64,000 bases of DNA from Escherichia phage EC1-UPM. Within the stretch, counting starts at the first letter, position 1, and each line of letters begins with the position of its first letter. This document shows, in pieces, positions 25,218-51,703 of this stretch. The translations under genes and the position numbers were made by a program. The stretch is from sequence record NC_041906.1. One strand, written 5' to 3'. The notes beneath the pieces were generated by a model. The model was given only the letters and a program-made list of their open reading frames with translations. It had not been told where the DNA came from and did no database searches.

Positions 25218-25519
25218 CCAAAAGTACTAAAGAAACTGTAGTCAGAAAATATCATTGGATGGTAGCAGCACAAGTAGTCTTCCAGCTTCCTAAAGTGGAT
25301 GATGGTTCCCTGCTTACCATGAACACAATGTTGCTCACCGATGAACCTTATGTGACCTATAAAGATTTGGCCCGTGCCAATCATTCCCTGAAGATTAGTC
25401 TGGACCAACGTTTCGACACTTCAGTTGACCTGAAAGACATTGTTTATCTGTCTCTTAGCAACCTGGGTCTGATGTCTGAACCAGAGTTCCAGGCAAACAT
25501 GATTCCTAAGGATAAATAA
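25214..25519 (+). CDS. hypothetical protein (101 aa)
   Basis: ORF, ATGA overlap with polymerase gene. Confidence 0.45.
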   Translation: MTKSTKETVVRKYHWMVAAQVVFQLPKVDDGSLLTMNTMLLTDEPYVTYKDLARANHSLKISLDQRFDTSVDLKDIVYLSLSNLGLMSEPEFQANMIPKDK

Positions 25520-25995
25520 TGGCTAAGCTCTCCGGTGGATTGAATAACTGGTATGTAGTGCCAGTTAAGCACCCTCAACGGAAAGAGCAAGAGCCATATC
25601 AAGCAGAGTGTGAGGATATTATCCAAGCACTGGGCATGACCTTCGATGAAGGTTGTGCCTTTAAAGCTCTGTGGCGAAATGCTGCTGCCCGTATGGGTAA
25701 TGGTAAACCTGGTAATACTGCTGCTTACGATGCAGAGAAGCTGGTTCATTATGCTAATCGTATTCTTGCTAAGGAGAAGTTAGCTAGTGAGTTATTTCCG
25801 GATCCTGCTACGAATGTAAATACCGTTGGTAGTTATTGGCACCATACACGCAATGGTAAACCTCACTTCACTAAAGAATTTTCATTCATTGAGATTGTTT
25901 ATAAAGATGAACGAGATGAAATTTACTCGTATAACTTCAATCAGCTAAGTGAAATTAAGTGGAACTGGGTTCACAGATACAGGATTACTTACTAA
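25519..25995 (+). CDS. hypothetical protein (158 aa)
   Basis: ORF with AGGA RBS. Confidence 0.45.
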   Translation: MAKLSGGLNNWYVVPVKHPQRKEQEPYQAECEDIIQALGMTFDEGCAFKALWRNAAARMGNGKPGNTAAYDAEKLVHYANRILAKEKLASELFPDPATNVNTVGSYWHHTRNGKPHFTKEFSFIEIVYKDERDEIYSYNFNQLSEIKWNWVHRYRITY

Positions 25996-26057
25996 TGAAG
26001 ATAACCAACAATCATGATGTCTCACTGGCTCTGGCTGTATGGCTATTGCATGGGTAA
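25995..26057 (+). pseudogene. 20-codon remnant duplicating the N-terminus of the nuclease gene at 26558
   Basis: Encodes MKITNNHDVSLALAVWLLHG*; 16/17 residues identical to start of ORF 26558 but 12/17 codons differ synonymously. Confidence 0.5.
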
Positions 26058-26063
26058 CTAGTT

Positions 26064-26561
26064 ATGAAACATAGAATTGCCCATGACAGGCTTTTACAGC
26101 TTGTATATTACGACCCTATTTCCGGGATTTTTACTCGTAGGAATACTGGAAAGGTATCCGGTTATCTAATGAAGAGTGGCTACATTCAACTCCGTGTGGA
26201 TAGCGTGTTGTACTATGGGCATATTCTTGCATGGTTCTATGTACATGGCGTATGGCCTACAGATAGGATTGACCATAAGGACAATATTCGCCATCACAAC
26301 TGGATAGATAACCTCAGAGAAGCAACCCACATGCAGAATAACCAGAGTGCTGTTCTATCTAAAGCGAACACATCTGGTTTCAAGGGAGTATCCTTTTCAA
26401 AGAAATTAGGTAAATACAGAGCAACTATTTGGGTTAATAGCAAACCGATCTCATTAGGTTTCACGGATAACCCAAGAGAAGCTGCTCTTCTTTATGATGA
26501 GGCTGCTGTAATTCATTATGGTGAATTTGCCAAAACCAATAAACAATTAGGTCTGCTATGA
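26064..26561 (+). mobile_element. HNH homing endonuclease with AP2-like DNA-binding domain (copy 1)
   Basis: IDHKDNIRHHNWIDNLREAT HNH motif; C-terminal GFKGVS...W AP2-like; inserted between gene-start remnant and intact nuclease gene. Confidence 0.7.
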
Positions 26562-27535
26562 AACTTACTAACAATCACGACGTTAGTCTCGCACTTGCCG
26601 TATGGCTTGTAACAGATGATTATGATTACGTAGACAATCCTAAGTATCTGTCTGTTACTACATTGCTTAAGCCCATTAAGCAAATCGTCATGAAGCATCG
26701 TGTAGACCTCAGTGACCAGTCTATTGATGTTATGGATTTCGTCTCTACATCAATGGGTACTGGCTTACATGATTCTATCGAGAAAGCCTGGAAGCTGGGG
26801 CATAAGACTGCATTGAAGAAGCTAGGATATCCTCAGCGTGTAATTGATGCAGTAGTCATTAACCCAACCAAAGCAGACTTTGATGCTAACCCTGACCTTA
26901 TCCCTATCTACATTGAGCAACGTGGAACCAGGGTGGTTAAGGGTTGGACTATCGGTGGTAAGTTCGACATCGTAACAGAAGGTCTGTTGCAGGACTTTAA
27001 GTCTACCTCAACCTATTCCTGGGTTGCTGGTTCCCGTGATGATGAACACAAGATGCAAGGTAGCTTGTATCGTTGGATTCACAACGACATCATTACTGAG
27101 GATGTAATTCGTATTAACTACATCTTCACTGACTTCATGAAACACATGGCTAATAGCAATCCGAACTATCCTGCTAATCGTATTATGCATAAGGATATTC
27201 CGTTGCTATCTGTCGAGAAGACTGAACGTTGGGTGGAAGAGAAGATTCACCTCATTGAGAAGTACTGGAATGCACCTGAAGAGGAAATTCCTGAATGTAC
27301 TGACGAGGAGTTGTGGCGAACAGAGCCACAGTTCAAATACTTCTCTGATGCTTCTAAGGTAGATGTACCTGGAGCCAGAAGTACCAAAAACTTTGACGAT
27401 ATGGCATCTGCCCGTATCTTCATGGCTGAAAAAGGTGGCAAGGGTGCTATCAAGGTCGTGGAGGGGCAGGTTAAGCGTTGTCTGTATTGCCCTGTCGCGT
27501 CCATTTGTGAACAGAGGAAACGATATTACCCATGA
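26558..27535 (+). CDS. PD-(D/E)XK-family nuclease with C-terminal Cys cluster (Cas4/RecB-like exonuclease)
   Basis: C-terminal CTDEE...C-x2-C-x5-C Fe-S-like cysteines; replication-module position. Confidence 0.5.
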   Translation: MKLTNNHDVSLALAVWLVTDDYDYVDNPKYLSVTTLLKPIKQIVMKHRVDLSDQSIDVMDFVSTSMGTGLHDSIEKAWKLGHKTALKKLGYPQRVIDAVVINPTKADFDANPDLIPIYIEQRGTRVVKGWTIGGKFDIVTEGLLQDFKSTSTYSWVAGSRDDEHKMQGSLYRWIHNDIITEDVIRINYIFTDFMKHMANSNPNYPANRIMHKDIPLLSVEKTERWVEEKIHLIEKYWNAPEEEIPECTDEELWRTEPQFKYFSDASKVDVPGARSTKNFDDMASARIFMAEKGGKGAIKVVEGQVKRCLYCPVASICEQRKRYYP

Positions 27536-38600: not shown

Positions 38601-41600
38601 GCGACCTTGAGCATCAAACTCAATGTTGTTAGCACCCATAATGGTATCGAACTTCTGCTGTGCATAATAACGGTCAGCAGGGTTAGTACTATCTGGGTCA
38701 GCCATGAATGCTTCGACGGTCAGGTTCTTAGTAACGTGTGTATAGTATTCCTGTGCACGAGCCATGGCAGCAGGATTAATAGCAGCCTCGGTAGCGAGTG
38801 CAGCAACAATGTTAGTGAAGAGACGTTGTTCCTGCATGTTCATGGTGAAGCCATGAGCCTGAACATCACGAGTTACTTTGGTTGCATTCACTACTGCATC
38901 AGAGAACTTACCTTTACGAATTACTTGCTGTACTGGTTCCGAACCAATGTAGTCAGTAATCAGTTTATCAAAGGTTTTCCCTAACTCTTCCAGACGAGTA
39001 TTGTTACCGTATGCTTTGTTATGGAACAGAGTAGTGTCTTTAGCTACAGCAGCAGTAGGAGCTTGTCCACGCATTACTACAGCAGAGTTAAACAGTAAAC
39101 CTGAGAACATATCATCTGCATTAGCAGGAGCTTTCTTACGACCAAATACCAGACGTTTGATTGCCTCATATACAGCCTGAACCATAGCCTTAAGTGCAGT
39201 GGTTTTCTTCTGCTTACTAATCAATTCTCGGTTGGTTAAACCCCAGGCCATGTACTCGTTCAATGCAGCAGCTTTAGCCATTGCTGGTTCAATGAAGCCA
39301 TTAGACAAGTGACCATTAATGGTATTAAGTGCATCAGCATATGCTTCACGTACTGCCGGAGATTCATCCTTAACATCCAGAGTACGGAACTGGTTCATCA
39401 GGTCTTCAATGTTCTGGACTGCTTCATTAGGAGTACCCTCGTAGTGAGCCAGTACAGATTCAAAAGTAGAAGCATGTACCAATTCATGAACCAGAGTCTC
39501 TAAGGAAGGGGTAACTAAGTAGATGGTTTTATCTTCAAAGTTAGTCCAGCCATATGCATTACCAGCTTCAGCAGCTTCAATATCTTCCGGTGCTGGGCGA
39601 GTAATATTCTTCTCAATGGCGTAGGCATCCAGTTGAGCAGGTGTACCGTAAACAACTTTATAGTCTTTAGCAGCAAGGGATTTCTGTATTTCTTTCAATA
39701 CTGCTTGCTGTTCAGGAGACATCTCTTTAGCCAGTTTAGTAATGGCAGTATTAGACAGTAGACGTACACCAGATTTCAGTACACGACCAACCATCTCCAT
39801 AGCAGGTACTTCAACCACTGGCACTTCCTTCACTGGTTCTACCTTCGTTGGTTCCGCTTTAGTAGCACGTACTGCTTCACGACGCTTGTTTAGTTCAGCA
39901 TCAAACAGTTCGTTCAGCTTAGCTACTTGCTGGTCTACAGTAAGACCTTCCAAAGAAATTTTACCGTTGTTCACATAAGGAGCGCCTACAGCAGCCATCT
40001 GGTCAACAGTGACCTGTACCTGGTCCATTACCTTGTGACGAATATCTACACCCAAAGCAATGTTACGCAGATTACGCTCAATCAATGCAATACCAGAATC
40101 TCTAATCATAGAAATTTTATAATCTCTATCACCATCTACTCTGGCAATATGAGCACGTTGCTCAAAGTCTAAAGCAGACTTCGCAATAGCATCTATTGCT
40201 GCATCGGATAACTTATTTAAATCAACATTCTTAGCAAACTTAGAGAAAGACTCATATACATTCTTGATAGGGTTACCCTGCCAGGAAATATATACAGCCT
40301 CATTAGCTTTACGGCTTGCATCAGTAATGTCATTGATACCAATGTTCATACCATCAAAGATTTTCAGGGTATTCTTCGGAGCACCTTTCATAGTAGAAAG
40401 GGTCTGCATCATCATGCCATCACCAGTACCGATGGTCATAAATGGAATACCTGCTACACCTGCCTGCGAAGGAGCATAGATGCTCATTGGCACACGCATA
40501 CGGTCATCTAAGTTGGTAGCCAGTACCTGGTTAGCAACATCAGTGTTTTCACTGCCAGCAATGTAGAAAGTCTGTGAGCCAGTCTTAATCATTGGAGCCA
40601 GAGGAGCTAAGCTATTCTGAATTTCATTCAGTTCTTTCTGTGTTAAGAAATCACCCTTCTTCCATGTTGGGTCTTTTTCTTTTTCTGCCAGCTTAGCCTG
40701 TACTGCTTGTTGGAACATATCCTGCAATACCAGAGATTGAATCTGAGTAGCCTTCTGCAAATTCTCAGTAGAGTGCATCAACCCCTCACCAACAGTGAAC
40801 CGGATACCTTGTCTCATTGGCTCAACAAAGAAGTGCAGCATATTCTCTTGTAAGTTCTTCAGAGAATCCCCGGATACGGTAAACCCCTGGGGATTTAACT
40901 CACCAGTCAGAACACCATCTACTTCCTTAATAAATAACCTACCTTTGCGTTTGGCTGGAATTTTGCCAGTCAATGCTTCCATAGAAGTAAGGAAGGTATC
41001 CAGCATAGCCTGAGCATCAGCCTCAGACGCAGCCTCCTTACCAAACATCGCCATAGCCGGAGAAATGCTAGGGTCAGCAGCACGTGCTTTCAGAACATCG
41101 CTTAGGCGTTCATAAATGGAATCAGTAATTGCACTTACCATTTTGCCAGCAATACCACGAGCACCAGAACCATAGATGGTAATGGTCAGTGGGTTTTTGG
41201 CGATACCACGTTTCAGGTCCAGAGTACCATCTTCATTCAAGTTAAAATCTTTGATGAACAAATCCATTAACTTCTGGAGATGGTCTATCTGGTTTATAAC
41301 AGAAATATCCTTACTATAAGCATTGCGTAATTCATTTAGATAGAATTGCAGACTATTAGTAGATGCTTCATACAGGTCAACATCGTCTTCCTGAGTATGA
41401 TGCTCATTCATAGTCTTACCAGCTTTACCAAAGAACAAACCACCTTTAGCAGTATTCTTAATCCAGTTTGAAGTGAACTTACCTCCAGTCATTAATACCA
41501 TTGCGTTGATTGGACCGTTGGTTACACCATCAGCTTCAACGTACAAAGGAGTATTAAAGTTGGCACGGTCATCACTGTTCAGGTAACGGGCATATTCCAT

Positions 41601-44600
41601 AAGAGCCATGAGAGCTACAAAGGATTTATCATTACCAAGAGATGTTCTCAGGATATCCACTGCATCAGTTGGTAAGTATCCAGACTTATCAAACTCAACC
41701 ATCATATCTACAGCAGGCTTCAGCTTACCTTCCAGAGCTTTGGTAAGTTCTTCTGACATAGTTTCACGGGTCATTTTATGAACTTTGATACCCAATGCCT
41801 GAGCCAGTCCAAGCTGGAAGCCTGAAAAATCTTCGTTGTTCTGGTTCGATAAATCCAGGGTAGCTTTGGTAGGTAAGATAGCCTCACGAACCAGCTTAGC
41901 TGATTGGGGGGTATATTTACCTAACATCTGCATACGACCAACACGGGTCATATTGTAAGCATAGTGGATAGGTACAGAAGAAATGTCTTTACTCTGTGCT
42001 CTTACCTGTTCAATAACAGAGAACAATTGGTTATAAGAGTCTTCTACTGAACGGTTCTTACCTTCCAGCGATTTAGCGTGGTTCTCGTTAAGTAATTCTT
42101 TATTCAGAGTACCAGCACCCATCAGTTCGAGGATACGGTCTTTACCTAATGCCTCATAGAACTGAACCATTGGGGTATGTACAAAGAACTCTGTATCCTG
42201 TTCTGCTTTAAGAGCAGCTTTCTGTTCTGGAGTATTACGAACAGCAGGGTTACGTAACTGTGTATGAGCCACGGAAGGAATATCATCACCCAGATACAAT
42301 TTCTCTGCTGGTTCTAAGAGTACAGCCTCCTCGATAGCAGTAGGATAATTATTAATTGCATCATTATCTTCTAACTTATCAATGGTATACAGACCAATCG
42401 TCTTATTGGATTCTGGGTCAATCTCAGACACATCCAGCATAGACTCTTTAACTTCACCCATCTCAATGAAAGAAGACAGAATCTCTGTAGCCATTGCCAC
42501 TGGGATACCCTTGGTATAACCAAGTGGTGCATCGGCATTACGGTTAAGCCCCCAGTAAGACTCAATCTTTTGAGCCAGTGAGTTAGTAGCTTCAACCAGG
42601 GTCTGAGCATTCTCGAAGTCAGCCAGAATACCTTCTGGTAACAAAGACTCATTTACACCAGTAATAGCAGCTACGTCTTTCATGTCTTTAATGGCAGCAT
42701 TCTGTGTAGCAGTAAGTCGCCATTGCAGACCAGCAAGTACAGCAGTCTCTAACAACTGGTCATTGAACTTAAAGGTATCACCATCTTTTTCTACGATGTT
42801 AAGTAACTTACCACCCACCCAACGGTTAGCCTCAGTCCCTTCTGCAAAACGTTTACCAACGTTCTTGTTAGCAAGGAACTTAGCCAGACGGTCAGACAGG
42901 GTAGTCTTCAGAGTTTCACCGAAATCAAATAAGTCCTGATAACGCTTAATCACATCACTTGTGAGAGCGTTATTTTCTTTTTGAGTGAATGCTTCAAAGC
43001 GAGCAACGGAAGACAATGCTTTCTTAACATCAGTCAAAGGAGACTCGGAACCAATGGTACGAGACTTAGGTTCTTCTGGTAGAGAAAATGCTTTAAGGAA
43101 CTGGTTCGGTGTCTTGTCATTGTTATAGACAGGGAACACTGTTTCCATTTGAGATAGAGGTTTACCACCAACGGTATAGTCTGCTTTCAGTTGAGCCAGA
43201 GATACTTCTTCCTTCTCAACGTTATTAGTGTTACGCCCAGACGTATCTACACCAACCTGAATCAGTGCATTGTTTGCTTCTACAAATGATTGAACAGTAT
43301 TAAATTGTTCAGGAGTTAGTTTCTGATTATCAAATAGTTGTAAAGATACAAATGGTTGTTCACTGCCTTTGTAGAAGGTAGAGCGAATAGCACCAGTATC
43401 TAGTGACATATCTCGATAACCATCGTGTCCAAATACATCAGACAGACTGATGTGGTCGCCATTGGAACCAACAACAGTACCATCAGCAAATAACCATGGA
43501 CTCTCCCTACGATCACCATACTTATTAAGAGTATCTTGAGAAATGGTATTCTCTTTTACATAAGCATCCTGTTCAGATTCAGTAGGTTGCTCGATGGTAT
43601 CCTCATTAGTGAGGGTAGCATCCTGTTTTTCAGACTGATTCTCAGGTTCTTTTACAGGCTGTGGTTTAGACTCTTTAGTAGTGGGTTCTGTTTTAACAGC
43701 TTCACTAACAGAGGGTTTAGTCTGTACAGTAGGGGTAACTGGTTCCTGTTTTGTAACAGGAGTTTCATCAACCTGATTCACTGGTTCACTAGTCTGTTGG
43801 GATTGAGCAGCATCAAGATTGCCCTGACGGAACTCTTTAACTACCTGGGCAGCAGGCTTGTCTAGACGTGAATCCAATGGGGTAACTTTAACATGAGAAA
43901 CATTAAGCTCCGGGTAAGCCGTAGCAAGTGCGTTAGCAATATCAGCTACGGTCTTGGCTTCCAGTCCTACTTGCTGGGCAAACTTAACCGACTTGGTATC
44001 ATACGGATTGACACCGAGGCCAGTACGACTACGTACCCATTCACGCGAAGGAGTAAGAGCCTGATAATGGACAGACTTATTCTTATCCGCATTCCCAGAA
44101 ATCAGATGCTCATTCAACGCTCCGACCTTATTCTGCATGTGCTGGGCGAACTTCATAAAGTCGTCGAGATAAGCGGAAGCCAAATCGAAGTTACCAGAGT
44201 TGTACGCAGAACGAATGCGTTTAGCATGTTGCAACGCAGAGTACTGGCCTTCATTAGAACGAGACTCGTCGGTTTTAATTTGTTTACTAACAATGTCCTG
44301 AGGACGTAAGCCTAGTTCTTCTGCTTTAGCGTCAAATTCTCGTGCTCCTTGCAATAGAGCAGCAGCAGATTGCAGGGCAGCACGCTGACGATTCCCTAGC
44401 GTAATCTTACCTTCACTTGCATGTTTCAGAACCATGTTCACTGAGTCTGCATCCAGTACTTCTGGAGACATATCAGCAGCCATAGCAATGTTGTTTGCCT
44501 GGGCTTGGTTAGCTTCTTCAGTAGCCTTCAGTTTACCTGCTTCAGCCTGTTCCTGAATCATGGAATGAATAGCACGGAATGCACGGAGTACCTTCGGTGT

Positions 44601-46523
44601 ATTCTGAACGTTAGCCATCAGGCCAGAGAACTGGTCTACGATTGCAGCAGCAGGAGAACCTTGTTCCAGATTAGCCAGAGCACCTGGGTCACGGTTAATG
44701 AAGCTATCCATAGACATGATGTTGTCATACATCTGGATTGCAGCTTCCATTTGAACGTTAGGGTCTTCAGCAGTATTAACCAGGTCAGCCATTTTCTGAA
44801 TAGCTTCAACACGGTTAGTGGAACCAGAAACAGCTTCACGGATTGCAGGACTAGCTTGTTCTAGTTCTACTGGGTCAAACTTCATTGCCTGAGTTAAGTC
44901 AGCAGCATACTGAGTAGCAGCAGCTTTCTCTTCAGGAGAAATATCCATTGCATCTACTGCTTCCTGAACAGTTGCTTGTGCTTGTTCTGCCTGAGCAGTA
45001 GCTTCTTGTGCAGCAGCGTTAACTGTAGCGTCTGATACGGGAGATGCTTGTTCATTACGCTTAGCTACTTCTTCCCCACGTTGAACCAGAATGTTAGTAA
45101 TAGGAGAAGCTACTTTTGCTAGTGCCTTACCAGCCAGAGAAGCACCAGCCAGGGTAGTACGTACAGCAGGACCAACGGCAGCACCAGCAGCCTTAACAGT
45201 TGCACCAGGAGCTTGAGCAACTCCAGCAGAACCAAAGCCATACAACGCACCAAGACCAGTTTGTTCACCCACACCTTTAAGCAATTCACGATTAGCATCT
45301 ACATTACCTTGAATTGCTTTGTTCTGTGCAAACTGACTTGTACCAGACTGGATACCTTCTTCCACAGTTTCACGGAGCATGTTAGAACCAGCACCGGCCA
45401 GTGAACCTACCTTGAGTGGGTTAAGTTCAAACTTAGATACCAGTGGACCAGTAATAGCAGCAACCGGAGCAGTTAAGCCAGCAGCAGTGATACCTGTTTC
45501 AGATGCAGTCTGACGTCGTGCCTCTTCAGGAGTTAAGCCGTCTTTAATATGCTGTTGGTATACTGGGGATTTAGCAGCCAGTTCACTGAATGGCATTTCC
45601 ATAATTTCATTGGCAGTCTGTTGGTATGCACCACCAGCTTCCATACCACCAATTGCTATAGCAGGTGCAGCAACACGACCAGTAGCTAATGCAGTACGTG
45701 CAGGACGTGAACCTAATTCAGCAGCTAAGGTAATACCCTTAACAGCTTTATCTCCACCTACCATTACTTTACCTAGTGCAGATACACCACGAATTAATGG
45801 GCCACCGGTAAAGAGAGAACCAACACCCTCAGCCAGACCATCTGTAGCAGCCATGCCATTAGATAAGGTGTTAGCAACAGAATCATAAGCATCACGACCG
45901 ATACGAGACAGGGAAGCAACGAGTTCACTTTCTCCTTTATCAATATCCTGCTTATAGAGTTTCTCATTTTCCTGTGCAGATATTACGTTCTGGTTCTGTA
46001 CTACATTACGACGAGCATTCAATGCATCAGACTGTAGGTTGTGTACACCTTTATTCAACCAGTCAAGACCGGAAGCAATGGATGCCCCGGCATTATCATT
46101 GACCAAGCCTGTGCCAAGAGCAGCAATGCCCCCGAGGGTATTAGCAACACCAAGACCAACACCAGAAAGGGTATCACCAAGTGCTTCACCATATGTACGA
46201 CTCTTAGTTAAATCACGACGAACAGCATTAGCTGCATTGACACGAGCATTGAGAATATCCATTCCTTGCTCATTGCCATATTTATTTATGATTTCGAGAG
46301 GAGAGGCATTAGTAAAATCTGCCTGAATAGAACCTGGGTCAAATGCACCAGCACCTAAGTTACCAGCACGACCTGCCTGTAATTGGTAAGCGTTCTGTGG
46401 AGTTAATTGGAAAGGGTTTTGCCCTTGTTCAGCTTGTTTCCGAGAGGTTGCAGTAGAGACATCGACTTGCTTAGCAGTAGTGATGCTGTCTGCGAAACCT
46501 GCCAGACGGTCAAATGTTGACAT
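35685..46523 (-). CDS. giant virion-encapsidated RNA polymerase (vRNAP, N4 gp50-like)
   Basis: ~3600 aa ORF, hallmark of N4-like phages; ATG at 46523 with AGGA RBS (track start 46541 is TTG). Confidence 0.9.
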   Translation of the reverse strand: MSTFDRLAGFADSITTAKQVDVSTATSRKQAEQGQNPFQLTPQNAYQLQAGRAGNLGAGAFDPGSIQADFTNASPLEIINKYGNEQGMDILNARVNAANAVRRDLTKSRTYGEALGDTLSGVGLGVANTLGGIAALGTGLVNDNAGASIASGLDWLNKGVHNLQSDALNARRNVVQNQNVISAQENEKLYKQDIDKGESELVASLSRIGRDAYDSVANTLSNGMAATDGLAEGVGSLFTGGPLIRGVSALGKVMVGGDKAVKGITLAAELGSRPARTALATGRVAAPAIAIGGMEAGGAYQQTANEIMEMPFSELAAKSPVYQQHIKDGLTPEEARRQTASETGITAAGLTAPVAAITGPLVSKFELNPLKVGSLAGAGSNMLRETVEEGIQSGTSQFAQNKAIQGNVDANRELLKGVGEQTGLGALYGFGSAGVAQAPGATVKAAGAAVGPAVRTTLAGASLAGKALAKVASPITNILVQRGEEVAKRNEQASPVSDATVNAAAQEATAQAEQAQATVQEAVDAMDISPEEKAAATQYAADLTQAMKFDPVELEQASPAIREAVSGSTNRVEAIQKMADLVNTAEDPNVQMEAAIQMYDNIMSMDSFINRDPGALANLEQGSPAAAIVDQFSGLMANVQNTPKVLRAFRAIHSMIQEQAEAGKLKATEEANQAQANNIAMAADMSPEVLDADSVNMVLKHASEGKITLGNRQRAALQSAAALLQGAREFDAKAEELGLRPQDIVSKQIKTDESRSNEGQYSALQHAKRIRSAYNSGNFDLASAYLDDFMKFAQHMQNKVGALNEHLISGNADKNKSVHYQALTPSREWVRSRTGLGVNPYDTKSVKFAQQVGLEAKTVADIANALATAYPELNVSHVKVTPLDSRLDKPAAQVVKEFRQGNLDAAQSQQTSEPVNQVDETPVTKQEPVTPTVQTKPSVSEAVKTEPTTKESKPQPVKEPENQSEKQDATLTNEDTIEQPTESEQDAYVKENTISQDTLNKYGDRRESPWLFADGTVVGSNGDHISLSDVFGHDGYRDMSLDTGAIRSTFYKGSEQPFVSLQLFDNQKLTPEQFNTVQSFVEANNALIQVGVDTSGRNTNNVEKEEVSLAQLKADYTVGGKPLSQMETVFPVYNNDKTPNQFLKAFSLPEEPKSRTIGSESPLTDVKKALSSVARFEAFTQKENNALTSDVIKRYQDLFDFGETLKTTLSDRLAKFLANKNVGKRFAEGTEANRWVGGKLLNIVEKDGDTFKFNDQLLETAVLAGLQWRLTATQNAAIKDMKDVAAITGVNESLLPEGILADFENAQTLVEATNSLAQKIESYWGLNRNADAPLGYTKGIPVAMATEILSSFIEMGEVKESMLDVSEIDPESNKTIGLYTIDKLEDNDAINNYPTAIEEAVLLEPAEKLYLGDDIPSVAHTQLRNPAVRNTPEQKAALKAEQDTEFFVHTPMVQFYEALGKDRILELMGAGTLNKELLNENHAKSLEGKNRSVEDSYNQLFSVIEQVRAQSKDISSVPIHYAYNMTRVGRMQMLGKYTPQSAKLVREAILPTKATLDLSNQNNEDFSGFQLGLAQALGIKVHKMTRETMSEELTKALEGKLKPAVDMMVEFDKSGYLPTDAVDILRTSLGNDKSFVALMALMEYARYLNSDDRANFNTPLYVEADGVTNGPINAMVLMTGGKFTSNWIKNTAKGGLFFGKAGKTMNEHHTQEDDVDLYEASTNSLQFYLNELRNAYSKDISVINQIDHLQKLMDLFIKDFNLNEDGTLDLKRGIAKNPLTITIYGSGARGIAGKMVSAITDSIYERLSDVLKARAADPSISPAMAMFGKEAASEADAQAMLDTFLTSMEALTGKIPAKRKGRLFIKEVDGVLTGELNPQGFTVSGDSLKNLQENMLHFFVEPMRQGIRFTVGEGLMHSTENLQKATQIQSLVLQDMFQQAVQAKLAEKEKDPTWKKGDFLTQKELNEIQNSLAPLAPMIKTGSQTFYIAGSENTDVANQVLATNLDDRMRVPMSIYAPSQAGVAGIPFMTIGTGDGMMMQTLSTMKGAPKNTLKIFDGMNIGINDITDASRKANEAVYISWQGNPIKNVYESFSKFAKNVDLNKLSDAAIDAIAKSALDFEQRAHIARVDGDRDYKISMIRDSGIALIERNLRNIALGVDIRHKVMDQVQVTVDQMAAVGAPYVNNGKISLEGLTVDQQVAKLNELFDAELNKRREAVRATKAEPTKVEPVKEVPVVEVPAMEMVGRVLKSGVRLLSNTAITKLAKEMSPEQQAVLKEIQKSLAAKDYKVVYGTPAQLDAYAIEKNITRPAPEDIEAAEAGNAYGWTNFEDKTIYLVTPSLETLVHELVHASTFESVLAHYEGTPNEAVQNIEDLMNQFRTLDVKDESPAVREAYADALNTINGHLSNGFIEPAMAKAAALNEYMAWGLTNRELISKQKKTTALKAMVQAVYEAIKRLVFGRKKAPANADDMFSGLLFNSAVVMRGQAPTAAVAKDTTLFHNKAYGNNTRLEELGKTFDKLITDYIGSEPVQQVIRKGKFSDAVVNATKVTRDVQAHGFTMNMQEQRLFTNIVAALATEAAINPAAMARAQEYYTHVTKNLTVEAFMADPDSTNPADRYYAQQKFDTIMGANNIEFDAQGRSSLLPTFVGLAMVSEEVRKVLADIPVMKADKKSGNTVDAMLTNIGTAAMASLNARVAGDTKASNVQEGMDALAQTIMQTSLNAQSFYDSVATPTGNAIDRANQYLVDSIDVLSTRALGGAREVAANTKNPLVKGAAHAAQLVAAIATEKNGAIVAEGVMAAMNQGKVWQPFHDLVNDIIGRTKSNASVYDLIKAVRAQVQADRQQFREHLPTTIASKFSRKLTNDEWKAMHTGMGKTDLAVLRDTMPLDEIRDLLTDQKIVDREVNKLEADLQKQAGRNWPLISRKSKQLAQYMINGTVGNNLLRNATAISRLLGERKTTSSIVDVAQLDKLITLYALEAMNKTDREMLSSLAQTEIEGMDFATSYLVGQRKDEMAKAKSDSRATLNQYKGYIPSENKQGVNLIVAEDSQFADLIEKSYVRLGTYQGSSANRGSARSYYFAPVQAQAPFSQGILQNVRNTAGGADLGTGFTMGTMVAGRITDKPSVDRITKALARGERGNEPLLPVYDANGNVVAYEQSIDPNMLKHIEGDNHLARAIGVWRGRQVEEAKAQRFNDMLIENLHSMYENDLKMSASNKFQYVNLFDSKLDPVTADALKLMNSETRRKAESLFGPGELWVRRDMLNDALGYRAASVGDAWSGNSRWSPETLDTFKKAMLGVFGNRAYKYVMGGENLVQNLVKEAKTLIVVKSVVVPAVNFLANLYQMVARGVPVKNIAKSIPQKTAEINQYLKSRLRQVDAEAELRAATNPNQIRKLKAEIQSITDSHKRLSIWPLLEAGEFSSIADAGIGRDDILITEGKLHEYMDKLADKLPKSVRNAGRYALITKDTALFQGIQKTVEYSDFIAKAIIYDELTQRKGKTREEALGRVTEEFINYDRLPGRFRGYMESVGLMWFYNFKIRSAKVAVSMIRNNPVHAAMAMLAPTPTMFGNVGLPIQDNIFSIAAQGNLGYSFGFGQGLRAHNLNPWLNLTN

Positions 46524-46590
46524 AGCATGATTCCTGTTCAAACTTATATCGTATAAGAAGATTCACTGTACAGTAAGTGAATGTAAGAGA

Positions 46591-46626: not shown

Positions 46627-48573
46627 TTATCGAGGTTGCATATAGGGAGGTAAACCCTCTGCTAATTTTCGATAACGTTTAGCTCGTTCTTCATCTTCAC
46701 GACTGCGTTCACGCTCTACGGAAGCATTAGAACGGAAGTTCTGTGGAACCAGGTTCCCTTGATTAGCTACCACAGTATTAACAGCAGCATCCAGTGCAGC
46801 CCGTGCTCTTACTAACTCAGCTTCACGAGCAGGAATAGTAGCAGCAAGTCCGCTTTGACCAGCAGCCACACGACGACGAGTATCAGCAAGTAAGGTTTCT
46901 GCTTGATCTACCTGGTTCTGGGCATTAGCAATATTACCCTGTACCTGAGTAAGAACATTATCACGAGCAGTAGCTTCAATGCCTTCCCCACGTCGCACTG
47001 AACGTGCTAGTTCTCTGGCAACGGTATCGTCAATACGAATACCATTACCACCTTCCGGTGATTTCCCTGGTGTAAGCGCATCCCAGGTACGACCAAGAAT
47101 ACCCTCTGGTACGTTTGTAATAGATTGCTTAAGAATCTCAGCAGCTACAGCAGGAGACTGCCCCGATTCCTGCATAACTTTATTCAGTCGAGCTACCATC
47201 CATCCTTTCTCAGAACCTTTAAAAGCATCCTTGAGAAGACGGTCTGCTACTTCACCAATGGTGGAGTTGTCACGTAATGCACGAGCATAGTTAGCAGTAA
47301 TGGTTCCAGTATTATCTTCAGACTGGCGTGCAGCAACTGTATTGCCTGCCATGTTTGAAACTACTTGCTGGGTCTGTAGCTGGTCAAGAGGTGCACCTAC
47401 TTCTGCCTGTGCAATTAACTGACGTGCTTCACTCCACGGCATATCCTTATAACCACCTACACCCAAGTCAGGCAATGCAGCCCAAGTCTTGGAAAGGTTA
47501 CCACTCTTACGGTCATTAAAGATTGCTTCAGCTATTTTGTCCTGTACTTCAGGAGTCATTTGCTGATTACGCCAGTCTGAACCAAGTACCTTAGGTGCAT
47601 AGTCTTCCAGGGTAGCTTTATTAATCTGGAATGCTCCTACAGGGGAATGACCTTGTGACGGGTTATTAATCATAGTTTGCTGATGATTAGTAACCTCACC
47701 CAGTGTCATTTCAGTAATAGGCTTATCAGTAGCAGCAAAGGTATAGGTTGCATCATAAGGGGAACCAGAACGAGTACCAGCAGTTCCAGGAGCAGAGCCA
47801 GAAGGGGATGTAGCATAAGTACCAGGGAATCTCTCGTTCACACCCCGCATGATTGCAGAACGTACACCTGGGGAAGCATTCTGCATAGCAGACTCTGCCA
47901 GTGTAAGAGCATCCATAGGAGTGGAAGCACTACGGAAGATGTCAGTCAATATACCGGATGCAGCTTGTGAATCAGCATCATTACGTTGACGTACATTAAG
48001 GTCAAAGCGACTACTTGCCTGATTAATAGCAGCACCACCTTGCCCCTGAAGACGGCTCAACATATCCAGTTGTTGGTCAGCAGGAAGTGCAGATAATGCA
48101 TCACGGGTTTGACCTAATGCAGTATTAATACGGTTCTGGTCACCTGACTGATAAGCCTCAGACAGCAAACGAATAGCCGGTGAAGCATTATCTAGGGCAG
48201 AGTCAGTATTCTGTAAACGACCGAAACGATAAGCATTGTAGTCATTGGTTCCTTGCTGACCTTGCTGAGTCAGAAGAGTACCTGCTCGCTCATCCAGATT
48301 CTGAAGAGTACGCTGACTTACTAATGAAGGGTCAACCCCCTGGAACAATGCACCTGATGCTAAAGCATTACGATACTCAGTAGGGTCTTGGTATCGCATA
48401 GCATTCATCATGACGGCATTGCCAGCCTCCTGCTTGGCAGCGTTCTGGAAATTACCCAGTGCATCACTTAAGCCGGAGGTAGCGTTACCAATCATGTTTC
48501 CAAATGTGCGAATGCTGTCACCTACTCCAGAGAAGTTAGGTGCATCAACATTTCTCCATGTTATCTGGCTCAT
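46627..48573 (-). CDS. internal virion protein (N4 gp51-like) with possible lysozyme-like segment
   Basis: 648 aa, Q/N/G/A-rich; segment EMTLGEV...GAFQINKATLEDY resembles transglycosylase core. Confidence 0.5.
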   Translation of the reverse strand: MSQITWRNVDAPNFSGVGDSIRTFGNMIGNATSGLSDALGNFQNAAKQEAGNAVMMNAMRYQDPTEYRNALASGALFQGVDPSLVSQRTLQNLDERAGTLLTQQGQQGTNDYNAYRFGRLQNTDSALDNASPAIRLLSEAYQSGDQNRINTALGQTRDALSALPADQQLDMLSRLQGQGGAAINQASSRFDLNVRQRNDADSQAASGILTDIFRSASTPMDALTLAESAMQNASPGVRSAIMRGVNERFPGTYATSPSGSAPGTAGTRSGSPYDATYTFAATDKPITEMTLGEVTNHQQTMINNPSQGHSPVGAFQINKATLEDYAPKVLGSDWRNQQMTPEVQDKIAEAIFNDRKSGNLSKTWAALPDLGVGGYKDMPWSEARQLIAQAEVGAPLDQLQTQQVVSNMAGNTVAARQSEDNTGTITANYARALRDNSTIGEVADRLLKDAFKGSEKGWMVARLNKVMQESGQSPAVAAEILKQSITNVPEGILGRTWDALTPGKSPEGGNGIRIDDTVARELARSVRRGEGIEATARDNVLTQVQGNIANAQNQVDQAETLLADTRRRVAAGQSGLAATIPAREAELVRARAALDAAVNTVVANQGNLVPQNFRSNASVERERSREDEERAKRYRKLAEGLPPYMQPR

Positions 48574-48585
48574 GATGGTTTCCTA

Positions 48586-49035
48586 TTAACGAGTTAGCTT
48601 GTTAGCTGCAATGTAAGCATCAGCTGAAGACTGGTCACGGTTTTCTGCCGTAGCACGACTACGAGCACGGTCTTCAAGTGCAGTGTTATAAGACTTAATC
48701 TGGTTATTCAGGTTAGTGTTAGTAACACTCTTAGCAAAGTTCAGCTGGTCTTTGGCTAACTTATTAGCCTGAAAACCACTATAGATATTTGCTAACGAAC
48801 CAAGAGCACCCAGTCCTAGTTGGAAGGTAGGTATGTTCATACCAAGCTGGTCAGCTGAGCCATTACCCGAACCAAACAGTGAGTTATCTAGGTTTCCATT
48901 TAAAAAATCCATACCAACTACCTGTCCTGGCTGATAATTCATAGCTGGGGTATTAAAGTTCTGATTGTTATTAGACATCCAAGACATAGCAGCTGGCTGT
49001 GGGGTTTGGTTGCCTGTAAAGAATGACAAATCCAT
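48586..49035 (-). CDS. virion protein (N4 gp52-like)
   Basis: ATG at 49035 with AGGAGA RBS (track start 49056 is TTG). Confidence 0.5.
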   Translation of the reverse strand: MDLSFFTGNQTPQPAAMSWMSNNNQNFNTPAMNYQPGQVVGMDFLNGNLDNSLFGSGNGSADQLGMNIPTFQLGLGALGSLANIYSGFQANKLAKDQLNFAKSVTNTNLNNQIKSYNTALEDRARSRATAENRDQSSADAYIAANKLTR

Positions 49036-49048
49036 GGGGATTCTCCTG

Positions 49049-51703
49049 TTAAACAAGGTCAGTATTAAGAGTCATGTCAGAGTAGTTACCTATCATATCT
49101 AGAGACAAGTCAGCTATATCTGAACCAGTCATGAGCGTACGTGATAAGAATGAATCCAGCGACTCTATTGACACGAATTGCATTGGGTCAATTACACCCT
49201 GTCCAGCAGTACCAAACATTTCTTCATACTGCTTATTGATTGCCATCATATCAGTATTGTACTGCTGCATTACTTTCTCTGCTTTCTGAATAGTAGCAGC
49301 CGTAGATGCATTAATATACTGGCTGATACCATTACCCACTGAACTGGTAAGCTGCATGATATTTTGGGCATTCATCATCTCACTCGCCAGAGTAGATAGA
49401 GATGTACCGGTAGACAAAGCAGTACCAACATTCATAGCTACCATTGAAGCGATAGCAGCAATGATAAAGCCCAGCTTGTCCCCGAACAGTGCGGCAGATA
49501 CTTTAGTGATAATAGATACAAGAATCATTCCAGCAATAGCATTTGCTACAGCACCCACTATCACAGCAGCTAATCCAACAAAGCCAAGTGATGCACCAAC
49601 TGCACCATACGCTCCAAGTATACCTGCTCCACCAGCACCAGCTGTAAATACAGAGATAACCACAGCAACTACAACAACCAAAATCTTAAAAGCAGAGGAA
49701 TGATACCATTTCTTCTTAACCTTCTTATATGAGTTCATCACTAAGTAGGAACAGGCAGTAGATAACTGAGTACTTCGAACCAGTGACATGGAACGGTATA
49801 TGTTAGTGTGTAGTGGAATAATGAATCCACTTTCTTCTGCATCACCCATTGCCCCAGCAACATCAATGTGTACTGATTTATTCTTATATACCCTGTTATA
49901 GTGATTTAGACCCAGTACTCTTAGTTTACGGTAAGTGTTATTACCATCCTGCCAAAGTAACTCGTATTCCTGCATAGTGTAAAATGTAGGAGTAACCTCC
50001 AATTCCTTAACTGAACCGGAGTTACGAGAGGTACGCATATTCTTGCGAGTAAGGGTTATATCCCCTGCATACCTGGCTCGAAGCTGACCCTGTTTAGCAC
50101 CAGGCCATGCTTTACCGGAGTGAGTAGTTTCAAATACATAGTTCCAGCCAATAGTCATGTCATACTTGTAATGTTTACTGCTATGTACCCTAAACTCTCG
50201 CTTAGGTATGACAGGGTATTCCGGCAGTGGAGGGGGTGTTCCAACAATATGACCTTCATGCCTGTTCCACCATTCTACATATGTATCAACCGCATCATTG
50301 GCTGCCTGATAACCTGCAATTACTGCTTCCAGAGTAGGGTAGGTTGGGTCAGGCGGAAATGCTTCAGTAGCCATCTGAAAGAAACGGTAGATGTATTCCT
50401 TAGCAGTATCCTCTGGGGTATTAAGAGATACACCGAATGTGCCATAAATGTATTGGATATCGCCTATGTCCTTATTCTTCTTAAGCTCAGTTATTACATT
50501 ATTGAGTTTACCACCAGTAGCTTTATAAAGAGCTTTCTTACAGTGAGGGTAGATTGGGTCATTCTCTACCCATTGTTTATCATTCCTGATCGGAATGAAT
50601 GGGTAGAATCGGTTGTCAGTAGCTTCAGTCTCAAACAGTGAATCCAGTACAACGTTACCAGAGTTCTGTTTATAGATAAGCATCTTAGGTGTACCAACAG
50701 CAGTCATCTCAGTATCAGTACGAGTAGTCTGCGATGAATACTTACGAACCAGTGTCTCTGTGGTTGTAGTAATTGTATCAGTACGAGTAACACCACCACC
50801 TATATCAACTACATTAGTAGTTACAGAAGTACTGGATTGAACCTCACCAAACTTTTTATGAGTCATTACCCTGTCAGATACAACCACAGTTACATCATTA
50901 GGTTTCTCAGTAAATCCTCTACGGTAAACCTTAACGTAGGAGTTCCAGTTATCCACACTTGGTTCAGTGACGGTACTGTCTTCATCCGGTCTACCGTCAG
51001 AGTAAACAGAATGAGTATGTATAGTCTTAGTAAGGTTAGTTGTATTAGCCGTCGTATCACTTGAGACAGTAGTCCATAACAAAGTGGAGGGTAAATCATC
51101 CTCATTATCATAGACAGTAGTTGGTCCCTCTACCGGTGGATTGGTAGATGGGGACTTATAGAATGAGTAATCAGCATAGAGATACAAAGCACCTGGTTCA
51201 AAGTTAGTGGGTGTGAATTTAATAGTAGAACCTCCATCCAGGGAGGTCATAGTAATTTCATTAGTATCTTCATCAATATCTATGTCGAATCGTTCCATGA
51301 TTCGACTTGGAGCATTCTCATAAAGATACTGGTCACACCATTGTTCAAAGTCAGCAAAGCCAATCTCTGCTGCCTGAACATAAACAGACTCTCCAGCAGG
51401 TGGTGTAATTTGACCCTCTATTACAGTAGGGTCAATCTTAGCCAGTACACCTAATGAAGAACCAGCCATACCAACTTCTGAATCATAGTGGTTCTTACTC
51501 CAGCTGGAGAACAGTCGCATACGAATACCAGGTCCATTCATATAACTATCAGAGATAGTGTCTGCCATAGTGAATCCTGTATTGGAAACAATGTTACCAA
51601 TGACTACAGTCTTCATATAGTTAGGACGTTTGTGTATATCCCCTGCCATGTTATAGACAGAGGATGCTACGTATACTTTGGTCTTCCCACTGAATAAACC
51701 CAT
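49049..51703 (-). CDS. large internal virion protein (N4 gp53-like) with Gly/Ala-rich membrane-spanning segment
   Basis: 884 aa; hydrophobic VVVAVVISVFTAGAGGAGILGAYGAVGASLGFVGLAAVIVGAV; TAATATG coupling with upstream gene. Confidence 0.55.
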   Translation of the reverse strand: MGLFSGKTKVYVASSVYNMAGDIHKRPNYMKTVVIGNIVSNTGFTMADTISDSYMNGPGIRMRLFSSWSKNHYDSEVGMAGSSLGVLAKIDPTVIEGQITPPAGESVYVQAAEIGFADFEQWCDQYLYENAPSRIMERFDIDIDEDTNEITMTSLDGGSTIKFTPTNFEPGALYLYADYSFYKSPSTNPPVEGPTTVYDNEDDLPSTLLWTTVSSDTTANTTNLTKTIHTHSVYSDGRPDEDSTVTEPSVDNWNSYVKVYRRGFTEKPNDVTVVVSDRVMTHKKFGEVQSSTSVTTNVVDIGGGVTRTDTITTTTETLVRKYSSQTTRTDTEMTAVGTPKMLIYKQNSGNVVLDSLFETEATDNRFYPFIPIRNDKQWVENDPIYPHCKKALYKATGGKLNNVITELKKNKDIGDIQYIYGTFGVSLNTPEDTAKEYIYRFFQMATEAFPPDPTYPTLEAVIAGYQAANDAVDTYVEWWNRHEGHIVGTPPPLPEYPVIPKREFRVHSSKHYKYDMTIGWNYVFETTHSGKAWPGAKQGQLRARYAGDITLTRKNMRTSRNSGSVKELEVTPTFYTMQEYELLWQDGNNTYRKLRVLGLNHYNRVYKNKSVHIDVAGAMGDAEESGFIIPLHTNIYRSMSLVRSTQLSTACSYLVMNSYKKVKKKWYHSSAFKILVVVVAVVISVFTAGAGGAGILGAYGAVGASLGFVGLAAVIVGAVANAIAGMILVSIITKVSAALFGDKLGFIIAAIASMVAMNVGTALSTGTSLSTLASEMMNAQNIMQLTSSVGNGISQYINASTAATIQKAEKVMQQYNTDMMAINKQYEEMFGTAGQGVIDPMQFVSIESLDSFLSRTLMTGSDIADLSLDMIGNYSDMTLNTDLV

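Follow-up and report, generated by a model that had tools for sequence, protein, structure and literature searches.

A lambda-type lysozyme domain in the gp51-like tunnel ejection protein of Escherichia phage EC1-UPM, with a possible role in murein passage

Podoviruses must pass a wide protein tube through the murein, and the N4-like phages must also pass a 380-kDa RNA polymerase. T7 achieves its passage with a transglycosylase located on gp16. What opens the cell wall in the N4-like phages is the question raised by an open reading frame (ORF) of Escherichia phage EC1-UPM, analysed here within a window of 64,000 nucleotides (NC_041906.1). The ORF lies on the minus strand at 46627-48573 and encodes 648 amino acids (aa), exactly as reported in the original prediction, which considered it an internal, ejected virion protein with a C-terminal segment similar to the catalytic core of lytic transglycosylases. 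In this work it is assigned to the gp51 tunnel ejection proteins and found to carry a central lysozyme-superfamily domain, which is a candidate for the cell-wall-opening function. For N4 itself, peptidoglycan hydrolysis was considered a requirement that no ejection protein appears to carry and that is "presumably provided in trans" (Bellis et al., Nat Commun 2026; PMC13434306).

The window comes from a podophage of the G7C/N4 type (Gamaleyavirus, Schitoviridae), and the identity of the ORF as the T7-gp15-like tunnel protein gp51 can be regarded as established from sequence homology. In detail, phrog_6126 matches it end to end (residues 1-648, E 1.5e-302), and its sole solved relative by sequence, the N4 deltaC-gp51 of PDB 11MN, was matched by phmmer over aa 1-358 (E 7e-117). 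Global identity to N4 gp51 is 47%. At the DNA level the ORF is 92% identical to that of Escherichia phage nithesis and ~91% to those of ECBP1 and St11Ph5. The cassette order gp53-gp52-gp51-vRNAP (virion RNA polymerase), on a single (minus) strand, is the same in St11Ph5 and N4. The protein contains no cysteines. The earlier view of an internal ejected protein was thus borne out by gp51 homology and synteny, the virion role following from orthology with N4, where gp51 sits around the portal in the virion and is lost upon ejection, and where ten copies of a fragment comprising residues 1-359 assemble into a channel whose "leg fold" resembles that of T7 gp15 (PMC13434306). N4 gp51 had been previously assigned as the analogue of T7 IVP-C (gp15) by Hardies et al. 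By the same orthology, EC1-UPM gp51 would be packaged, ejected, and assembled into an oligomeric trans-periplasmic channel.

The layout of the protein (table 1) shows a compact domain placed between the tunnel-forming region and a divergent C-terminal part. Among 25 aligned homologues (≥52% identity), aa ~260-395 are the most conserved block of the protein, with 61% identity to N4 gp51 vs 32% in the C-terminal third. The domain therefore seems to be under very strong purifying selection within an otherwise fast-evolving protein, as judged from the alignments. When 46 diverse family members were used, AlphaFold2 predicted aa 259-397 as a confident compact domain (predicted local distance difference test, pLDDT, 95.0; predicted template modelling score, pTM, 0.89); a shallower alignment had given a pLDDT of 70.7. 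In 8 of 150 relatives the YD motif of the domain is located no more than 25 residues from the start of the protein. This is an indication that an N-terminal helix is not supplied and that the domain is autonomous.

The domain is widespread. Its profile matches 711 representatives of 50%-identity clusters, 374 of them with E≤1e-10. Most are gp51-like proteins of 550-800 aa with the domain at ~250-420, but some have other architectures, including proteins of 133-261 aa. In a tblastn search of GenBank phages the domain was found in 138 records, all of them Schitoviridae of 70-76 kb, and in none was it annotated as a lysin. A word-index homologue search with a 150-aa fragment returned nothing, whereas the full-length query did give homologues. 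One gp51-like protein (P0236, 872 aa) combines a lysozyme-like domain at aa ~431-558 with a C-terminal staphylococcal nuclease domain at aa 754-857 (Pfam E 2.1e-20), and would be an ejection protein bearing a nuclease.

The nearest solved relative of the domain is lambda lysozyme R (PDB 1AM7), a lytic transglycosylase. A single BLASTP comparison with lambda R gave a colinear match to its residues 44-156 (E 0.005). In hhalign comparisons, with the family represented by a profile of 151 cluster representatives, the match to close relatives of lambda R reached a Prob of 92% (P 6.5e-7), that to ten diverse lambda-type lysozymes of GenBank phages 97.2% (P 2.9e-11), and that obtained after the addition of the phiM7 hub domain 98.0% (P 2.5e-13; 91 columns, lambda residues 27-134), the GH104 alignment consisting of 11 sequences only. 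Homologue searches with lambda R gave only sequences of ≥85% or ≥99% identity, and tblastn plus nine annotated regions were used instead. As controls, forty column-shuffled templates gave a best score of 18.3 (P 0.031) and the reversed template 13.5; the observed score was 80.8. Lambda lysozyme and the gp51 domain share the motifs YD-x-x-x-G, G-x-Y-Q, [ST]P..QD, and W-A-x-L-P (YD, GRYQ, SP..QD, and WASLP in the GH104 profile), and the predicted model has a lysozyme-like fold superposable on lambda lysozyme. That gp51 contains an autonomous lysozyme-superfamily domain, closest to lambda-type lysozymes, is considered established.

The differences from lambda lysozyme are equally clear. Helix alpha1 and its Glu19 are gone, the position being occupied by A/P/G/S; an extra helix (aa 291-303) stands where lambda lysozyme has strands; and a Thr is found at Q+5, as in SLT and RPF enzymes but unlike lambda lysozyme. 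The C-terminal helix is longer and carries the invariant E391, whereas lambda E148 is variable in GH104. Furthermore, the gp51 domain is embedded in a virion protein of 648 aa, whereas lambda R is a free endolysin. In the same virus family, Klebsiella phage cp20 encodes at 61-534 an entire GH104 lysozyme of the lambda type, catalytic SEGT included, which presumably serves as its endolysin, whereas N4 and EC1-UPM have a gp61-type muramidase. Canonical GH104 genes are therefore circulating among the Schitoviridae together with the alpha1-less gp51 domain.

The peptide on which the transglycosylase assignment had been based is central (aa 288-331) and not C-terminal. Similarly, the Q/N/G-rich character ascribed to the N-terminal half amounts to a slight enrichment (25.6% vs 21%); low complexity is confined to the short linker at aa ~248-272, and the N-terminal half is equivalent to the helical tunnel region that is ordered in N4. 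A canonical SLT core with its catalytic Glu within EMTLGEV (E288 or E293), upstream of GAFQ, could be proposed for the peptide, as SPVGAFQINKAT resembles the SLT motif GLMQxxxxT: the series G313-A-F-Q316-I-N-K-A-T321 is present, with G, Q, and T invariant. A few relatives also show matches to the Pfam SLT and PF06737 (RPF/Transglycosylase-like) models, all below threshold and confined to the G.YQ...T region. EC1-UPM gp51 itself has no match to PF01464 (SLT), and its relatives reach at best E 0.013 and 13.9 bits vs a gathering cutoff of 21.3. For PF06737, 6 of 46 relatives gave matches, the best with E 0.0072 and 17.4 bits vs 27, and these matches do not extend to the catalytic CESGG helix upstream of GGLQ. 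The E-S pair that precedes GLMQ in GH23 is also absent, since helix aa 291-303 ends in non-acidic residues and the position at SLT spacing upstream of Q316 is [F/Y/H][G/Q]. Over the 151 clusters neither candidate is conserved (E288: Q45/S43/T20/E18; E293: E88/D37/Q17/G5), and in the model E293 opens its helix instead of closing it. Both in structure and in profile the domain is matched best by GH104 and not by GH23, and a canonical SLT core is essentially excluded. In sum, the comparison with SLT and lysozyme families suggested with the original prediction placed the segment in the lysozyme superfamily (GH104-type, hhalign 98%), with SLT below threshold, while the notion of a catalytic core with a conserved candidate Glu was not retained.

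Where the catalytic residue of a GH104 enzyme would be expected, gp51 has a linker. Glu19 of GH104 is on alpha1, upstream of the aligned core, and in gp51 this place is taken by a G/S/P-rich stretch, in which PGTAGT aligns where the catalytic SEGT would be. The residue aligned with lambda E19 is A265 or P262: P262 is opposite E19 in the greedy hhalign alignment, and the KEGT of the phiM7 hub aligns with A265-G266-T267, its Glu being opposite A265. Columns 259-272 have no acidic consensus, and E[GSTA][TS] occurs within 20 aa upstream in only about 3-5 of 150 relatives. Another helix, MDALTLAE227SAM (MLAEGT in N4), was considered as a displaced alpha1 and rejected, as its position is E40/N19/D18/gap in 140 relatives and as the relatives that start directly with the domain have no such helix.

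On the other hand, the residues of the glycan-binding motif and of the C-terminal lobe are retained. Invariant or nearly so in the 151 clusters are G308, G313 (151/151), Q316 (150/151), T321 (149/151), G331, W334, L360, L367, Q344 (≥149/151), W364 (≥149/151), W380 (136 W and 15 F), I387 (138/151), and E391. The last of these, which corresponds to N4 E392, is the single invariant acidic residue (151/151). In the model it terminates the last helix of the domain, at its C-terminal end, in the motif W..MR..IA..E-[SV]-G. The catalytic Glu of lysozymes is likewise found at the C-terminal end of a helix and is followed by a small residue and Gly. T4 lysozyme tolerates the relocation of its N-terminal helix to the C-terminus. 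When the isolated E391-helix profile was compared with GH104 alpha1, E391 fell on E19 with a score of 10.7 (P 0.009), as against 6.1 for the GH104 C-terminal region; 2% of 200 shuffles reached 10.7. With a tandem-duplicated GH104 template for circular permutation, hhalign gave a colinear alignment of low confidence, and only the isolated-helix comparison favored alpha1. Support for a replacement of alpha1 by the last helix is thus weak but consistent.

Proteins occupying the gp51 position, or similar positions in other phages, offer independent evidence. In Pseudomonas phage ZC03 (Schitoviridae, KU356690) an 831-aa protein is encoded at 24492-26987, on the minus strand, between the gp52-like gene and the vRNAP. 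This protein, gp016 (ZC03_016), has a central canonical Pfam SLT domain (aa 336-443, E 2.5e-18) with ES, GLMQ, and AYNxG motifs, and was found in the virion proteome (PMC11619397). Its N-terminus (MANRLEWQQISA...) resembles that of gp51 (MSQITWRNVDAP...). The presence of an SLT domain in the gp51-position protein suggests that the tunnel protein is a scaffold which takes different muralytic modules. A second case is found in metagenomic contigs of PRD1-like tectiviruses, where a 261-aa protein (P0179, 6001-6786) consists of a gp51-type domain beginning at the YD motif and a C-terminal transmembrane helix, with a 122-aa ORF and then an M15 peptidase next in gene order. At this position PRD1 has P7, a canonical SLT transglycosylase of 265 aa with a C-terminal transmembrane helix, after which comes the holin; P7 itself is not a member of the gp51 domain family. 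The gp51-type domain and SLT therefore share a slot in two unrelated DNA-delivery proteins, which favors a muralytic role. Similarly to the gp51 domain, the canonical GH23 virion transglycosylases of T7 gp16 (N-terminal SLT), ZC03 gp016, and P7 are modules on ejected or membrane-associated DNA-delivery proteins. Unlike the gp51 domain, these three have E-S, GLMQ, and AYNxG and pass the Pfam SLT threshold.

In Foldseek searches against viral models, the same fold was found in baseplate-hub/gp5-like "tail lysozyme" proteins and in proteins annotated as M15/M23 peptidases. The hubs of Sinorhizobium phage phiM7/phiM12 (gp98) and Anabaena phage A-1(L), like gp51, carry a GH104-type domain on a virion penetration protein. 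For instance, phiM7 gp98 matches the domain profile (single-target hmmsearch E 4e-20; Foldseek E 3e-4) and shares with gp51 the gp51-specific helix (MTVGQVKELQRNML) and SSALGRYQITRQTL. Unlike gp51, the hub versions retain alpha1 with the catalytic Glu (MLDYIGQKEGT) and end without the W..MR..IA..E.G helix, and they look like the ancestral, canonical state. In phiM7 gp98 (247-1860) the C-terminal lambda-type domain has both a canonical catalytic helix, with KEGT, and the helix and motifs of the gp51 type, and it is plausible that this protein represents an evolutionary intermediate.

As a whole, the SLT slot equivalents and the tail lysozymes point to a probable role at the cell wall. This bears on a proposal in which the lysozyme ancestry is irrelevant and the domain serves as a globular plug or spacer, for example, as a binding site for the N-terminal domain of the vRNAP or for the portal crown inside the capsid. 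It would agree with the N4 virion, where density assigned to gp51 adjoins the portal wing and where the gp50 N-terminal domain is modelled as associating with gp51 (PMC13434306). The domain recurs, however, in penetration proteins that have no gp51 partners (the tectivirus membrane protein, the myovirus hubs, and the proteins annotated as M15/M23), and its glycan-binding motif is retained, so a function without any cell-wall role seems quite improbable.

The published structure of the orthologous N4 protein stops short of the domain. The ordered part of the N4 deltaC-gp51 decamer comprises residues 52-255 only, and gp51 was characterized as slender, helical, and without an intramolecular core, with its C-terminal part proposed to extend towards the inner membrane (PMC13434306). 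The construct (1-359) stops at the equivalent of EC1-UPM G358, that is, within the lysozyme-like domain. This truncation explains both the disorder past residue 255 and the fact that the domain escaped notice. A search of the literature available for this work returned neither an earlier description of such a domain in N4 gp51 nor zymograms of N4 virions.

It may be asked whether the domain still cleaves murein. An active, non-canonical lysozyme with E391 as the acid is, on balance, somewhat favored, since two types of module share the slot, the domain is autonomous, E391 is strictly invariant, and there is a functional need. Several points weigh against it. The canonical catalytic helix and its Glu are gone in ~97% of the family, which is the classic signature of a pseudo-enzyme. 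In colinear alignments the E391 helix is opposite lambda's own C-terminal helix, the relevant end of which would, by our reasoning, face away from the cleft. The resemblance of the last helix to alpha1 is only weakly supported (P ~0.01-0.02, 15 columns), and the slot exchange is an argument by analogy only. The N4 authors saw no hydrolase, though their construct cuts the domain and the residues beyond 255 were disordered. Searches of Pfam, NCBIfam, and PDB with the protein, the domain, and profiles of 16 and 46 sequences gave nothing at threshold except N4 gp51. However, lambda R, with which GH104 was founded, has itself no match to any Pfam-A model at E≤1, and for this reason the silence of Pfam on the gp51 domain is uninformative and no case against homology; it also means that Pfam-based annotation pipelines are blind to this lysozyme lineage.

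The same facts could be read as a dead lysozyme-fold relic of a tail lysozyme, which would bind peptidoglycan as an anchor or register, or act as a protein-protein or gating element, with cleavage supplied in trans or unnecessary. T7 can do without its gp16 transglycosylase under standard conditions, and a loss of catalysis could thus be tolerable; mutants of this enzyme show defects at 20 °C and on stationary-phase cells. Alpha1 and Glu19 were lost while the glycan-binding G-x-[FY]-Q was kept, and in colinear alignments E391 is opposite a GH104 position that is neither catalytic nor conserved. An invariant Glu can also be structural, and conserved basic partners are available in K356 (93% K/R) and R384 (95% R/K). 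The provision in trans presumed by the N4 authors would be in line with such a relic. On the contrary, a relic fits poorly with the occurrence of this domain type and a bona fide SLT in the same slot of two unrelated virion proteins, with a Glu at a helix C-terminus that is strictly invariant over 151 clusters, and with very strong purifying selection on the whole domain. A relic is thus possible but less likely than an active enzyme.

In the reading favored here, the tunnel "leg" (aa ~52-255) and the C-terminal part are separated by an inserted domain of ~130 residues (aa ~259-397) that descends from lambda-lysozyme-type (GH104-like) tail lysozymes. G-x-[FY]-Q...T, which binds glycan, is kept, as are SP..QD and W..LP of the C-terminal lobe; the N-terminal helix with the canonical Glu has been lost, and an extended C-terminal helix ending in E391 has been gained. 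For the active lysozyme, the following sequence of events is proposed. Ejected gp51 would build the trans-periplasmic tube, and the position of the domain after a leg of ~200 residues would bring it roughly level with the murein. At this height it may engage peptidoglycan and most likely make local cuts in the glycan strands, which would open a way for the tube, the vRNAP, and the DNA. The catalytic acid would be E391, on a helix replacing alpha1, in what would effectively be a circular permutation. A broader proposal is put forward tentatively, as it goes beyond what we would consider probable: the domain would define a widespread (>700 clusters), unannotated family of virion muralytic modules, with alpha1 re-created C-terminally with E391, which would provide the missing activity of N4-type ejectosomes and replace P7 in PRD1-like tectiviruses.

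In the respective search of the vRNAP and the gp52-, gp53-, and gp54-like proteins, no other muralytic Pfam domain was detected. The EC1-UPM homologue of the endolysin (N4 gp61-type muramidase) sits in the lysis cassette. The role of gp52 in the outer-membrane complex is known from N4 (PMC13434306). The N-terminal ~60 residues of the gp52-like protein (MSWMSNNNQNFNTPAMNYQPGQ...GNGSADQ) are rich in N/Q/G/S and probably unstructured, in agreement with what was noted earlier for N4, namely, that of all segments of the internal proteins only the gp52 N-terminus lacks a helical prediction. The start of its ORF overlaps the end of the gp53-like ORF (49049-49056). The vRNAP ORF as mechanically called opens at a TTG (MNRNHAMSTFDR..., window 46523-46541, minus strand), but translation could in truth begin at an ATG located six codons downstream (MSTFDR...). 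The gp50 coding sequence of St11Ph5 has 10,788 nt (3,595 codons) vs 3,618 aa for the EC1-UPM ORF, and being shorter, it suggests that the true start may be even further downstream.

Table 1. Coordinates of gp51, its parts, and the neighboring ejection genes in the EC1-UPM window
Feature	Position in window	Strand	Description
gp51-like ORF	46627..48573	-	648 aa, ATG start; periplasmic-tunnel ejection protein of Gamaleyavirus (G7C/N4-like)
"Leg-fold" helical tunnel-forming region, aa 52-255	47809..48420	-	From alignment to 11MN; part resolved in the N4 decamer
G/S/T/P/A-rich low-complexity linker, aa ~248-272	47770..47832 (aa 248-268)	-	Low entropy; disordered in AlphaFold2 model 1; conserved PGTAGT
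Compact lysozyme-superfamily domain, aa 259-397	47383..47799	-	Lambda-lysozyme/GH104-like, without helix alpha1; most conserved block
Core, aa 267-375	47449..47775	-	Profile-profile alignment with lambda R 27-134/135
Peptide of the original prediction, aa 288-331	47581..47712	-	Covers helix aa 291-303 and the G-x-[FY]-Q...T motif
GAFQINKAT, aa 313-321	47611..47637	-	Glycan-binding motif; counterpart of GRYQ in lambda lysozyme and of GLMQxxxxT in SLT/RPF enzymes
Last domain helix W..MR..IA..E, aa 380-392	47398..47436	-	Ends in E391 (codon 47401-47403)
C-terminal part, aa 398-648	46630..47382	-	Divergent, mostly helical; 32% identity to N4
gp52-like ORF	48586..49056	-	156 aa; outer-membrane-complex ejection protein; upstream partner in the ejection cassette; phrog_2646 E 1.6e-50
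gp53-like ORF	49049..51703	-	884 aa; in the ejection cassette
vRNAP (gp50-like) ORF	35685..46541	-	3618 aa; downstream partner; in Pfam, N4 RNA polymerase domains only

The lysozyme-fold domain falls exactly in the region that was truncated and disordered in the 2026 study of N4, and N4 E392 and Q317 are concrete residues for mutation. If the domain is inactive, it would be a clear pseudo-lysozyme recruited as a murein-docking module. If it is active, it would represent a lineage of lysozymes whose catalytic residue has moved and which Pfam, NCBIfam, and current GenBank annotation all miss, and an additional candidate family of virion-associated lysins; in that case, it may be the cell-wall-opening tool that was not found among the N4 ejection proteins in 2026.

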